A stretch of DNA of 64,000 bases, taken from assembly GCA_000004695.1 (NCBI GenBank), contig CM000152.2:64001-128000 (forward strand), given 5' to 3'. Position numbers and translations under genes: made by a program. Within the stretch, counting starts at the first letter, position 1. The number at the start of each line of letters is the position of its first letter. Shown here in pieces: positions 5,635 through 61,277 of this stretch. The notes below the pieces were generated by a model, which worked only from the letters and a program-made list of their open reading frames with translations, searched no databases and had not been told where the DNA came from. Source of the DNA: Dictyostelium discoideum. Its lineage: Eukaryota.

Positions 5635-5718
5635 CTACAAGAATAAGATCTAAATAAAAAACATTCATTATCCTAAATTTTTTTATTATAATTAACAAAA
5701 TTTGTATTTATAATCATT

Positions 5719-5848
<130 letters not shown>

Positions 5849-5858
<10 letters not shown>

Positions 5859-6424
5859 ATGGTTACCTTTAATTCATATTTTATACATTTGGCTTTAAAA
5901 CAATATGAATCCAAACCACAACTTAAATCAGAGATGCAACCATAAAATGGTGTTGAACATTTTCTATTAATGCAATCTAATGAATTTAGACAATCGGTGG
6001 CTCTAACACAATCTTCACCAAATTCTGCAAAGAATGCTGGTTGACAAGTTTTGTTTTGGCTTTGCAAAGTGAAAGATAATGTTGAATTAAATGAAACACA
6101 ACTACTGCCTATTTCACAATCACCACTATCTTGACAAATCTCCCCTACTTTCAACGATGGAACACAAATACCATCCTTGCATCTATCATTGGCATAACAT
6201 CTTTGTCCAGTGAATGGTGATGAATTATTACATAACTGACCTAACTCTGAACAAGTATTAATTGAACATGCTAAATCTGATGTTATTGGTATTCGAGAAC
6301 CAACTAAACTTGGTTTTAGTTTAACTTGGCTTTGACAATTTTCAATCTTAATTAAAAAAAAGAGTAATACAATAAAATATTTTAAATAACTTTTAATTCT
6401 ATCTTTATTTTTTTTAAAAATCAT
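5849..6424 (-). CDS. Secreted cysteine-rich (EGF/furin-like spacing) protein, 191 aa, possibly exon 1 of the downstream Cys-rich gene
   Basis: ORF begins with a signal-peptide-like segment (MIFKKNKDRIKSYLKYFIVLLFFLIKIENCQSQ). It is followed by about 24 Cys in C-x-x-x-C / C-x-D-G-x-C patterns. It ends at a stop, but a GTAACC sits at the last codon, so a splice into the downstream exons cannot be excluded. Confidence 0.45.
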
Positions 6425-27595: not shown

Positions 27596-27975
27596 TTAAT
27601 AACGTGGCAAATAAAATGGTTTGATGTACTGATGAAAAGCAATATCTCTATCAGTAATAGTTTTTCTTTTTCCATGAGCAGCCATTATAGCACAATCGGT
27701 CATTATAATATTCATGTAGCATTCAAAAGCAGTACGAAGAGCATGAATAGCACCGACACTCATTCTATAGCTTTTAGGATCGGTCCAAGCCCACAAAATC
27801 TGTCTTTTGATTTCTCTCAAAACTAAATTTCTTCTCTTAATTGGTTTTTGGGGATCATTAAAAGCTGGAGGTGAAACTGTTGGTCATCAGAAGATAATGG
27901 TGATAATGATGATGGTGATAATTGTTGATGGAAAGATCTCTGTAATCTTTTTTGCCTGCCCCTTGTTGGATTCAT
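27596..27975 (-). CDS. Histone H3-like histone-fold protein; 5' region frame-disrupted (possible divergent H3 variant or pseudogene)
   Basis: Minus-strand frame (27882..27596) reads ...KPIKRRNLVLREIKRQILWAWTDPKSYRMSVGAIHALRTAFECYMNIIMTDCAIMAAHGKRKTITDRDIAFHQYIKP. This aligns to H3 alphaN ([20 protein letters not shown]) and to alpha2-alpha3 ([46 protein letters not shown]). About 21 residues corresponding to the alpha1 helix are absent. An ATG at 27975 opens a different frame (MNPTRGRQKRLQRSFHQQLSPSSLSPLSSDDQQ..., an H3-tail-like basic N-terminus) that runs into a stop. The histone-fold frame has no start codon of its own. Confidence 0.45.
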
Positions 27976-29232
27976 TTTTTATTTTTTTTTTTTTGTAAAT
28001 AAAATTCCTTTATTTATTTTTTTTTTTTATTATTTTTTTTTTTTTTATTATTTTGTTATTTTTTTTATAATTATTATTTTTATAATTATTCCCATTGAAA
28101 TCTAAAATTTGAACTAATGAAAAAAAGAAATGTTTTTCATATTTTTATATCTTTTTTTTTTTTTATATCGAGAAAAAATTAAAAAATGTTTAAATAAAAA
28201 AGATTTTTGGTAGTTTTTTTTTAATGATGTTCCTTGAAATTTTTATTATATTAACACTTGTCATATTATTATTAACACTTGTCATTTTTATTATTTTTTT
28301 TATTTTTATTTTTTTATTTTCTTTTTTTTTTTCCCAATGGGCCAAAAGACTTTAAAAAAAAAAGATAATTAATTTTATTTAAAATAAAAATCAATTATCA
28401 GCTATGATTTTTGAAATTATTTTATTTTAAAATAATATTTTCTACTTATTATTATTTTTTTTAATTGATTATCACCACAATGACTGTTGTCAAACATCAC
28501 TGGTCCAAATCTCTGGTGGATTTAGTGATTGAAATGGCGAAAATGTCCAAACCATACATTTTCTATAATCTGAAACTGTTGCAGCAAATATGTCTACCAT
28601 CTTTTGACCATTTGATACTGTAAATTGATTTTGAATGTGCTCATTTAATTGAATGTATTAATTTTGGTGTTGTTGTTCTTTTGTTACTTATATCATCAGA
28701 ATCATCCTCCATAAGCTCATAAGATATTGGTTCCATATTCTATAATTTTATATTTTAATCTCCACCACATGTAGCTAATCTTTTACCATCAGGGTAGTAA
28801 TAAATAAAAATATAGGTGTTGCTATTTGATTTTATTGAAAATAGAAAAAGATTGGAAAATTATAATTTCATATTTTTGTTAGTTTTTTTTTTTAATTCCA
28901 TTTAGCATTATGATAAACCCAATAAGGTTTTAGAATTATCATTGATATTTGTGAAAAATGATTAAAAAAAAAAAAAAAAAAAAAACATTTCAAATAAATA
29001 TCAAATACACACGTGTGTACCATTAAATAAAATAAATATTTAAAAAAAAAAAAAAAGAAAAAAAAAAAAATAAAAAAAAAAAAGCAAACCAATTTTGATT
29101 TGAGTTGTTTAGAAAATTAAAAATCTACAACAACCGTTAGTTATATAAATATTATTATTTTATTTTTATTTTTATTTTATTTTTATTTTTATTTATTTAC
29201 AAAAGAGTCTATATATATATGAATTATAAAAA

Positions 29233-29829
29233 TTATTGTATAATACATTTTGAAGTATTCGATGTTGTTGTTGTTGGATCATTTAAAACACCATCTTTAC
29301 AATATAAATGACAACGTACTACCTGTTTAAATATTTCATTAACACCCTGATTACAAAGTGAAGAACATTCTAAATACATAGTTGCTTTAATTTCTTTTGA
29401 TAATGCTAAACCTTGTTTATATGAAATTGGTGGCATTTGATTATTTTCTTTTAATAAATTTATAGTATTTTCATCTTCACGTAAATCACATTTTGTTCCT
29501 AATAAAATGATTGGTGTATGAATTGATGGTGCATATTGTCTAATTTCAGGTATCCATTTTTTTGAAACATTTTCAAATGATGTTGGTGAATCAATTGAAA
29601 AACATAATATAATCACATTAGTATTTGGATAGGTTGATGGACGAGTATTATCAAATTCTGCCAATGCTGATGAATCCCAAAATCCAACATGACATACTTG
29701 TTTATTATATTCTATATCTAATGAAGTTGCATCAACATGTGATGGTACATAACCTGTTGGAAATGAACCTGTTGAATATGTCATCATCATTGTAGTTTTT
29801 CCAGTTTTACTATCACCTAATACTAATAA
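29233..29829 (-). CDS. Atypical Rho-family small GTPase (Rac-like) lacking the catalytic Gly/Gln of the G3 motif; main exon, small 5' exon unresolved
   Basis: Translation is LLVLGDSKTGKTTMMMTYSTGSFPTGYVPSHVDATSLDIEYNKQVCHVGFWDSSALAEFDNTRPSTYPNTNVIILCFSIDSPTSFENVSKKWIPEIRQYAPSIHTPIILLGTKCDLRED...YLECSSLCNQGVNEIF...SKCIIQ. It has G1 GxxxxGKT, G4 TKCD, G5 ECSSL and a CAAX box (CIIQ), and is colinear with Rac1. G3 is WDSSALAE instead of WDTAGQE. An acceptor (tataaag|) precedes the exon. A candidate ATGCAAAAG mini-exon at 29925-29933 lacks a canonical GT donor. Confidence 0.65.
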   Translation of the reverse strand, partial: LLVLGDSKTGKTTMMMTYSTGSFPTGYVPSHVDATSLDIEYNKQVCHVGFWDSSALAEFDNTRPSTYPNTNVIILCFSIDSPTSFENVSKKWIPEIRQYAPSIHTPIILLGTKCDLREDENTINLLKENNQMPPISYKQGLALSKEIKATMYLECSSLCNQGVNEIFKQVVRCHLYCKDGVLNDPTTTTSNTSKCIIQ

Positions 29830-30140
29830 CTTTATATATGATCTTATATAAATATTACATTTTAAAATTACTATATAATTAGTAAATTTTAAATGATAAA
29901 CTAATAAAAATAATAATAATATTACTTTTGCATTGTTTAAATTTCTTGTTTAAATTAAAAAAAAAAAAAAGTAAAAAATTAAAATTAAAAAAAATAAAAA
30001 AAAAAACACAAAGAAACGAAAAAAAAAAAAAATTAAATTAAAAATAAAAAATCTTCTTTGAAAATATCCAACTCACTTTTCAAAATAAAAAATTTTTAAT
30101 AGAAATAAAAAAAAAGCCAGTAATAAAATAATTTTCCAAC

Positions 30141-30453
30141 GTTCAAAAAAGCTATTTTTAAACTTCAATTCTTTTTTAAAAAAAACAAAATTTAAAAAAA
30201 AAATTTGTGTTTATTTTTTTGAAAAAAAATGCATTTAAAAATAAAATTAAAAAAAAAGAAAAAAATAATAATGATGATGATAAAAATGATCCAAAAAAAC
30301 AGCTATTTTTAAACTTCAATTCTTTTTTAAAAACAAAATTTAAAAAAAAAATTAAATTTAAGTGTTTACTTTTTTGAAAAAAATGCATTTAAAAATAAAA
30401 TTAAAAAAAAAGAAAAAAATAATAATGATGATGATAATAATGATCCAATAAAA
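30141..30453. repeat. Tandem duplication of a ~155-bp AT-rich unit (2 copies)
   Basis: 30141..30299 and 30300..30453 are near-identical (agctatttttaaacttcaattcttttttaaaaa...aatgcatttaaaaataaaattaaaaaaaaagaaaaaaataataatgatgatgata...aatgatccaa). The region is intergenic. Confidence 0.8.
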
Positions 30454-30750
30454 AAAAAAGTTATTTTTTATTTTTTATTTTTTTTATTCCCTTCTCAATA
30501 ATATTATAAAAAAATTTCAAAAGAGCCCAACAATGGATTAAGAATAAGATTTAGAGTTGGTTAAAAGAAAAATAAGTTTTCAAAAAATTGATTTAATTTT
30601 TATTTTTTTTTTTTTTTTTAATTTTTTTTTTTTTTTTTTTTTACAAAATTTTTGGAATTCATGGTATAAAAACACACTTTTTTTTTTTTTTTTTTTTAAT
30701 TTGTTCTAGATTTCTTTGCGATATAAAGTGGCAAAATAAAACAAAACAAA

Positions 30751-31253: not shown

Positions 31254-31592
31254 AAAGTACACATTGATTTGATATACTAATATTTTTTATTTATAAAAAA
31301 AAAAAAAAAAAAAATATAGTATGACTCAATGAATAAAACAACAACAACAGTAACTCAAGTTGTTGTTCAACCAGTTTACCAAGGTTCACCACAACAACAA
31401 CCATACGGTGCCCCACCACAACAACCATACGGTGCTCCACCACAACAACCATACGGTGCTCCACCACAACAACCATACGGTGCTCCACCACAACAACCAT
31501 ACGGTGCTCCACCACCACAACCATATGGTGCTCCACCACCAGGCGCATATGCTCCACAAGGCAATTACCCACCACCATATGGTCCACAATAA
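30751..31592 (+). CDS. TM2-domain protein with PQ-rich repeat tail, ~151 aa; exons 30751..30800, 30986..31059, 31151..31206, 31320..31592
   Basis: The spliced product is MSQKSVCVTYLLWLFFG-IHRFYLNRPCSGVLYLFTCGCFFIG-GWFIDICLIPGMVEDYNAK-YDSMNKTTTTVTQVVVQPVYQGSPQQQPYGAPPQQPYGAP(x6)...GPQ. The HRFYL...GGWFIDI core matches the TM2 domain consensus (G.DRFYLG...G.GIW.LID.I). Donors are GG|GTAAAA, G|GTAAAT and AAA|GTAAGT, all acceptors are T-rich ...tag/cag|, and phases are consistent (2,1,0). The C-terminal tail is 6 tandem PQQPYGAP units. Confidence 0.5.
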
Positions 31593-31738
31593 AGTAAAAC
31601 TATTTATTTCAAATAAAAAAAAAAATAAATAATGATAATAATAAAAATAATATGAAAAATTAAATAAAATATTATTTAAATAAAAAAAAAAAAAAAAATG
31701 TTCAAATTAAAAATATTGGATATTTTCAGATTTTCAGG

Positions 31739-38263: not shown

Positions 38264-44452
<6,189 letters not shown>

Positions 44453-45695: not shown

Positions 45696-48817
<3,122 letters not shown>

Positions 48818-55335: not shown

Positions 55336-55458
55336 CTTTTTTATTTTTTTTATTTTTTTTTTGATCTGATAGACTTAATTTTTTAAGAACAAATCATTTC
55401 AAAATGCAGTATAAATTTCAAAATAAATTTTTTTTTTTTTTTTTTAAAATTAGATCAA

Positions 55459-55460
<2 letters not shown>

Positions 55461-55539
<79 letters not shown>

Positions 55540-55540
55540 A
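55461..55540. repeat. (AAAT)n microsatellite, ~20 units, upstream of the kinase gene
   Basis: Read directly. Confidence 0.95.
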
Positions 55541-55613
55541 AAAATAAATAAAAAAATAAAAAATATAAACCAGGTTTTATATAAAAGAAGGATTAGTGAA
55601 CAATTGTAATAAA

Positions 55614-58566
<2,953 letters not shown>

Positions 58567-61060: not shown

Positions 61061-61178
61061 TAATAACTTGGATTTATTTTTTTTTTTTTTAGTGGTGAAT
61101 ATCCAAAAATATTTATTTAATTTTAAATACCACAAATATAAAATAAAAAAAAAATAAAAAATAAAAAATAAAAAAAAA

Positions 61179-61210
<32 letters not shown>

Positions 61211-61277
61211 ATATATAAATAAATAAATAAATAATACTTGTATAATTTAAATTATTTACTTATTTGATTTTATTTGA

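Follow-up and report, generated by a model that had tools for sequence, protein, structure and literature searches.

The locus examined here lies in a 64-kb stretch of Dictyostelium discoideum DNA (64,000 nucleotides, hereafter the window) and raises the question of how a Rho-family GTPase would work when its G3 motif, DTAGQ in Rac1, reads DSSAL. Translation of the minus-strand gene at 29933..29233 gave a Rho-family GTPase of 205 amino acids from a CDS of 618 nt, and an exact-sequence look-up matched the spliced 205-residue product to "Rho-related protein racI" of D. discoideum AX4 (UniProt Q9GPR2, XP_642047.1, EAL68121.1), which is listed under the dictyBase identifier DDB_G0277897 in a proteome supplement (PMC12821622, file 6). 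The gene is the already annotated racI, a rediscovery and not a new gene; its name had gone unrecognised in the earlier note on this DNA. The window is 99.8% identical across 12.7 kb to a D. discoideum chromosome locus (L001) in which racI is called as a gene of 701 nt, comprising 618 nt of CDS and an intron of 83 nt, likewise in two exons. A tblastn search of the 64-kb window with RacI placed the protein at 29844..29236 with 99.5% identity and revealed no racI paralogue elsewhere in that stretch.

Named and cloned since 2001, RacI is yet almost uncharacterised in the literature that we examined. That literature contains no GTP-binding, hydrolysis or GAP assay for RacI and no discussion of its G3 motif; Rivero et al. 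2001 and Wang et al. 2013, which probably discuss the G12/Q61 substitutions of RacI already, lie outside it. The gene is one of 20 rac genes in D. discoideum, and its product has been placed with RacJ, RacM, RacN, RacO and RacQ in a group for which there is "very little information" (PMC8305917). Transcripts of racI are present throughout the life cycle and peak in early or mid development (PMC8305917, PMC12821622), the predominant expression being reported at mid stages (PMC12821622). A life-cycle proteome of 2026 lists the protein among those quantified, at levels that vary with stage (PMC12821622, supplement file 6), and assigns it to a developmental cluster (PMC12821622), while a racI knock-out is described as having no overt phenotype in a passage of that paper which cites Wang et al. 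2013 (PMC12821622). Binding partners have come from pull-downs in EDTA, in which GST-RacI was among the strongest binders of the RhoGEF GxcC (PMC3675359) and GFP-RacI, built from cDNA, bound the DH domain of GxcDD (PMC1914345). The earlier note had allowed that the locus might be an untranscribed pseudogene; this was rejected, as racI has been amplified from cDNA and its product is among the quantified proteins.

The window has a G+C content of 22% and the minus-strand coding island at 29233-29842 one of 27%. Read from 29842 to 29233, this island translates as ...YIKLLVLGDSKTGKTT...VGFWDSSALAEFDNTRP...LLGTKCDLRED...YLECSSLCNQ...TSKCIIQ followed by a stop, and the spliced translation of the whole gene begins with MQKSYIKLLVLGDSKTGKTT and ends with TSKCIIQ. 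The gene is made up of the following parts:

29926..29933, minus strand: exon 1, ATGCAAAA, 8 nt, encoding Met, Gln and bases 1-2 of codon 3
29843..29925, minus strand: intron of 83 nt, GTAATA...TATAAG, 8% G+C, with its acceptor AG at 29844-29843
29233..29842, minus strand: exon 2, 610 nt, encoding residues 3-205 and the stop codon TAA

Joining the donor GTAATA at 29925 to the acceptor AG at 29844-29843 restores the reading frame. The earlier note had proposed a first exon giving MQK-, and a mini-exon does begin at 29933; the boundary that it drew, after ATGCAAAAG, did not hold, the donor having been placed one base late. An exon 1 of ATGCAAAAG would be followed by TAATAT and lack a GT donor, whereas a shift of one base yields both GTAATA and the frame. 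We also rejected a start at the internal ATG (MMMTY...), which opens the 185-aa ORF of a mechanical ORF list and is the start used in the D. citrinum gene model P0002. The open frame continues upstream of that ATG through RSYIKLLVLGDSKTGKTT, the upstream P-loop coding sequence is in frame and conserved, and D. citrinum itself has ATGCAAAA followed by GTAA, so an internal start is not tenable. The same mini-exon and donor (ATGCAAAA, then GTAA) recur in L002, L005, L006, L007 and L003 (D. citrinum), all five being further genomes of the D. discoideum complex. In D. dimigraforme, too, a corresponding mini-exon precedes an intron that begins with GTAAGA at this position. Synteny extends beyond the gene: a TM2-domain gene, a TMEM128 gene and a mitochondrial-carrier gene lie upstream of racI in both L001 and L002, and L003-L007 carry subsets of these neighbours.

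We then compared the protein with solved Rho structures, using Rac1 numbering throughout for substitutions (RacI residue = Rac1 residue + 2, from the alignment to human Rac1 PDB chains). The identification of a Rho-family GTPase with the CAAX box CIIQ, as first proposed from the letters of the DNA, was borne out by a Pfam Ras match (PF00071, E = 2.6e-34, residues 7-179) and by an alignment with human Rac1 PDB chains (E about 1e-51) that is colinear across residues 6-182, Rho insert included. Matches of this strength are far from anything that chance would give. The motifs lie as follows:

29794-29817, minus strand: G1 or P-loop, GDSKTGKT (GDGAVGKT in Rac1; G12S), from the Rac1 alignment
29725..29751, minus strand: switch I, YVPSHVDAT (YIPTVFDNY in Rac1; T35S, F37V, N39A, Y40T), from the Rac1 alignment
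29656-29679, minus strand: G3 and switch II, WDSSALAE, with DSSAL at 29662-29676 and Asp57 kept
29485-29496, minus strand: G4, TKCD, the N/TKxD guanine-specificity motif, from the Rac1 alignment
29431..29469, minus strand: Rho insert, NTINLLKENNQMP, aligned to Rac1 124-135
29356-29367, minus strand: G5, CSSL, of the SAx type, from the Rac1 alignment
29236..29247, minus strand: CAAX box, CIIQ (29233-29247 with the stop codon)

Of the proteins with solved structures, human Rac1, Rac2 and Rac3 come closest (44-45% identity), and the highest-ranked PDB sequences are Rac1 chains that already have Leu at position 61 ('dtaGL'; 1i4t, 1e96). Alignment of the Rho insert to Rac1 residues 123-142 is continuous but for a single 1-residue gap. 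RacI keeps Lys16 and Thr17, Asp57, TKCD and CSSL, and the signatures of a G domain, namely G1 GxxxxGK[ST], G4 [NT]KxD and a SAx-type G5, are all present. The G3 signature DxxG[Q] is replaced by DSSAL. The loss of Gly60 and Gln61 reported in the earlier note is thus confirmed by the reading WDSSALAE at 29656-29679, and the whole change in switch II, from DTAGQE in Rac1 to DSSALA in RacI, amounts to T58S, A59S, G60A, Q61L and E62A. Where a canonical Rac has Gly12, Thr35, DTAGQ and F37/N39/Y40, RacI has Ser, Ser, DSSAL and V/A/T; two of these substitutions, G12S and T35S, had gone unremarked in the earlier note. No alternative exon restores a canonical switch II, a possibility that had been raised for this locus, since G3 lies inside the uninterrupted 610-nt exon and the product is identical to the database protein. 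In 162 aligned segments of related proteins Gly60 was found in 138 and Gln61 in 110, and the pair of Ala60 and Leu61 occurred only in the RacI cluster. Each of G12S, T35S, G60A and Q61L is a textbook engineered mutation of Ras or Rho proteins, and RacI carries all four at once. At the other end of the protein, a CAAX box in which X is Gln predicts farnesylation as a general rule, so that the prenyl group of RacI would be a farnesyl.

An AlphaFold model of RacI, built on a shallow alignment of 9 sequences (mean pLDDT 66.6, pTM 0.73, with the P-loop and switch I below 50), was used for the overall Rho fold only and for no switch conformation. It superimposed on Rac1/Rac3 with a TM score of 0.88 and an rmsd of 2.3 A, and the Rho insert helix at 127-135 is present, so that by this model the overall fold of RacI is the Rho fold.

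How RacI stands to better-known GTPases can be seen from three comparisons. With the engineered Rac1 Q61L (PDB 1i4t, 1e96, 4gzl) it has Leu61 and the fold, including the Rho insert, in common. However, relative to Rac1 it also has G12S, T35S, A59S and G60A, a divergent effector loop (F37V, N39A, Y40T), a CAAX box that ends in Gln rather than Leu, and a C-terminal tail that is not polybasic.

The second comparison is with the Rnd proteins and RhoH. Rnd3/RhoE (1m7b), with the motifs GDSQCGKT and WDTSGS, has Ser12, Ser59 and the lack of Gln61 in common with RacI, and both RacI and the Rnd family have a CAAX box. Rnd3 nevertheless keeps Gly60 and Thr35 where RacI has Ala60 and Ser35, and the identity between the two is 37%, below the 44-45% to Rac1, which places RacI outside the Rnd family by descent. 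Given this lower identity and the restriction of RacI to a Dictyostelium lineage, the likeness of RacI to Rnd is convergent. Back-mutation of the catalytic-site residues reportedly restored GTPase activity to RhoE. Rnd1-3 and RhoH are classed as GTPase-deficient through loss of Gly12 and Gln61 (PMC8305018, PMC2565660, PMC13236570), and RacI has substitutions at both positions (G12S and Q61L). The Rnd/RhoH analogy drawn in the earlier note is therefore a reasonable one, Gly12 and Gln61 being the losses that define the class (PMC8305018). Rnd proteins become loaded with GTP as they are synthesised and behave like constitutively active GTPases (PMC13236570). RhoH, whose likeness to RacI we take from its description as carrying changes near Gly12 and at Gln61, is GTPase-deficient through its Gly12-region and Gln61 changes, is mainly farnesylated and has an output set by its expression level (PMC2565660, PMC13236570), but it is found in vertebrates only and carries an ITAM-like motif (PMC2565660).

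The third comparison is with the engineered H-Ras 'state 1' mutants T35S and G60A. RacI, a Rho protein that is natural and not engineered, has the equivalents of both, together with G12S and Q61L. These H-Ras mutants are mostly in 'state 1', with drastically impaired GTPase activity and low effector affinity (PMC4867591), and G60A Ras has been discussed as a dominant negative (Ford et al. 2005, as cited in PMC4867591).

To place the gene in its lineage we searched for racI orthologues. A word-indexed search found them in other D. discoideum complex genomes, in D. citrinum and in D. dimigraforme, which has two in tandem; the search otherwise returned only distant Rac proteins, RacJ, RacM, RacN, RacO and RacQ not being among them. 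An exhaustive search revealed no relative above 50% identity outside the RacI cluster, and ten non-canonical relatives that we looked up came from Arcella, Anaeramoeba or metagenomic/transcriptome sources, none of them being named Dictyostelium. D. purpureum has no racI orthologue (PMC3188802). racI arose within the D. discoideum / citrinum / dimigraforme lineage. Our comparison set consisted of eight racI copies from seven genomes, for which the ORFs were re-read from the genomic DNA of each locus. All eight have an intact ORF ending in CIIQ or CIMQ, and Leu61 is present in every one (8/8), with TTG as its codon in some and TTA in others. Gly12 is absent from all of them, its place being taken by Ser or Cys (8/8). 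Ala60 is found in 7 of the 8, the second D. dimigraforme copy having Gly, and at position 35 the two D. dimigraforme copies have Thr where those of discoideum and citrinum have Ser.

How might such a protein work? In a RhoGAP-assisted reaction the arginine finger contacts the Gly12 main chain and Gln61 positions the attacking water (PMC8305018). RacI would still bind guanine nucleotide and Mg2+ through GxxxxGKT, Asp57, TKxD, CSSL and the hydroxyl at position 35, whereas the residues for GTP hydrolysis are lost through G12S and Q61L, accompanied by A59S and G60A. We infer that RacI would be a GTPase-deficient Rho, insensitive to GAPs and mostly GTP-bound once made, that its output would be set by the amount of protein and hence by developmentally regulated expression, as in the Rnd proteins and RhoH, and that it would be targeted to membranes via the predicted farnesyl group. 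Our preferred reading, to which we assign a probability of roughly 60%, is that RacI is a Rnd/RhoH-like, GTPase-deficient Rho that is insensitive to GAPs and controlled by its abundance and by membrane targeting. RacI offers a cheap natural test case for an origin of GTPase-deficient Rhos independent of the animal Rnd proteins and RhoH, and one too for whether the GTP-bound 'state 1' plays any physiological role. A 'locked on' protein does not follow automatically, since the equivalents of G60A and T35S favour an effector-poor 'state 1' in H-Ras (PMC4867591), and it is not assured that RacI is "constitutively active": it could carry GTP without being 'active' in the ordinary meaning of the word. 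The binding of RacI to GxcC and to the GxcDD DH domain hints that exchange factors still engage it.

These same observations lend themselves to another reading, which we find possible though doubtful: RacI may bind GTP but remain in an open, 'state 1'-like form that binds classical effectors poorly and GEFs well, and thereby act as a GEF-binding or GEF-sequestering, dominant-negative-like modulator of other Rac pathways and not as an 'on' switch. The presence of both T35S and G60A equivalents, whose H-Ras counterparts are mostly in 'state 1' (PMC4867591), would agree with this, as would the altered effector loop (F37V, N39A, Y40T), the strong binding of GxcC and the binding of the GxcDD DH domain. 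However, EDTA in the pull-downs was a condition intended to favour GEF binding generally, Ser35 and Ala60 are not fixed in the clade (Thr35 in both D. dimigraforme copies and Gly60 in one of them), and Ras data may not transfer to Rho proteins. We consider it unlikely that RacI, being GTPase-dead (G12S, Q61L) and 'state-1'-biased (T35S, G60A), works in early to mid development as an endogenous trap or competitor for GEFs, damping other Rac pathways, and not as a conventional activator; if this were true, RacI would be nature's version of the dominant-negative GTPases made in the laboratory, recently evolved within the D. discoideum species complex.

Alternatively, RacI might still cycle, with a specialised GAP supplying the catalytic residue in trans, as RapGAP does for Rap, and GEFs reloading RacI. 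Some GTPases without Gln61 are indeed hydrolysed via a GAP that supplies the missing residue, Rap being an example, and the precedent has been discussed for RhoH as well as Rap (PMC2565660); GEF binding by RacI has been observed, and D. discoideum has at least 45 RhoGEF-PH proteins (PMC1914345). RhoGAPs, however, work through an arginine finger that brings the Gln61 of the GTPase itself into position (PMC8305018). If the Ras G12 mutants are a guide, a Ser or Cys in place of Gly12 would be a further hindrance to that finger. We know of no asparagine-thumb-type RhoGAP, which likewise counts against a cycling RacI, and we hold this reading to be quite improbable.

Our preferred reading, that of a GTPase-deficient RacI, supposes a gene in use, and selection on the eight copies bears on this. 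Nei-Gojobori estimates gave dN/dS values of 0.10-0.54 in 27 between-species/strain pairs, and the synonymous proportion of changes exceeded the non-synonymous one both for AX4 versus D. citrinum (Fisher p = 2e-8) and for AX4 versus D. dimigraforme copy A (Fisher p = 3e-5). With dN/dS in this range, and with Leu61, the substitution at position 12 and the CAAX box kept, racI is a selected gene and no pseudogene. It is under purifying selection, and its unusual catalytic-site residues are maintained and not drifting. Judged from the racI copies, the only genes measured here, it seems less constrained than one might expect a core signalling GTPase to be. That racI is a duplicate without function and in decay, be it as an expressed pseudogene or as a neutral passenger, and that its odd G3 reflects degeneration, is highly improbable and largely refuted: its restriction to one lineage, with no orthologue in D. 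purpureum (PMC3188802), its relatively high dN/dS and the knock-out described in that passage as being without overt phenotype (PMC12821622) would fit decay, but 8/8 copies have an intact ORF with a conserved mini-exon, splice sites and CAAX box, dN falls significantly short of dS, none of the nucleotide-binding motifs has been lost, and the protein has been quantified in the proteome (PMC12821622).

The tandem racI copies of D. dimigraforme lie at L004 8001-8692 and 9195-9906. Their C-terminal halves are nearly identical and their N-terminal halves, from the P-loop to switch II, have diverged (WDTSALEE versus WDQSGLEE); the pair has a dS of 0.13 and a dN/dS of 0.68. Such a pattern points to partial gene conversion, or else to selection on the switch regions that is relaxed or positive.

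Several automatic racI models in newer Dictyostelium assemblies are wrong, which is a lesson for annotation. We identified four faulty deposited models, at L002 6001-7379, L005 3001-4296, L006 3001-6133 and L003 6001-6552. In three of them the CAAX box is removed by splicing and racI is joined to ORFs further downstream, among them a homologue of the ORF at 28490-28600 of the window; the D. citrinum model (L003) starts at an internal Met and has lost the P-loop. At all four loci a normal protein of about 200 amino acids, ending in CIIQ, can be read from the genomic DNA. We therefore rejected a loss of the CAAX box in P0001 (241 aa), P0016 (223 aa) and P0017 (351 aa), for which the genomic DNA reads ...TSKCIIQ and a stop. 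The models without the CAAX box or the N-terminus are prediction artefacts.

Finally, we also looked at the surroundings of racI. Rfam and tRNA scans of the whole 64-kb window gave no Rfam match and no tRNA. Between 200 and 500 bp upstream of the racI start codon a segment of about 154 bp is duplicated in tandem, with copies at 30145-30299 and 30295-30454 (family D1) that are about 91% identical with gaps and 80% without gaps; the segment could be a promoter element that has been duplicated. Another tandem repeat, whose units at 31378-31467 and 31448-31539 are about 91% identical, occupies an unusually G+C-rich patch, with 0.42-0.52 G+C at 31300-31600, and by colinear mapping to L001 it falls inside the TM2-domain gene (L001 4353-5186). 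Downstream of racI we observed a histone-fold ORF of 74 amino acids at 27596-27820 on the minus strand, possibly with more exons up to about 28620, which matches the C-terminal part (positions 63-117 of 122) of the Pfam Histone profile for core histones (H2A/H2B/H3/H4) with E = 1.1e-9. The gene calls of two other strains, L002 (7580-8403) and L005 (4807-5664), include a Histone-domain gene at the equivalent position, and those of the AX4-like L001 have no gene there; the ORF may belong to an unannotated gene or encode a histone variant that has diverged. Simple-sequence tracts at 46580-46830, 55430-55570, 5700-5865, 38600-38750, 56950-57060 and 61160-61235 cross-match low-complexity stretches of other strains at many staggered offsets, as is typical of Dictyostelium.
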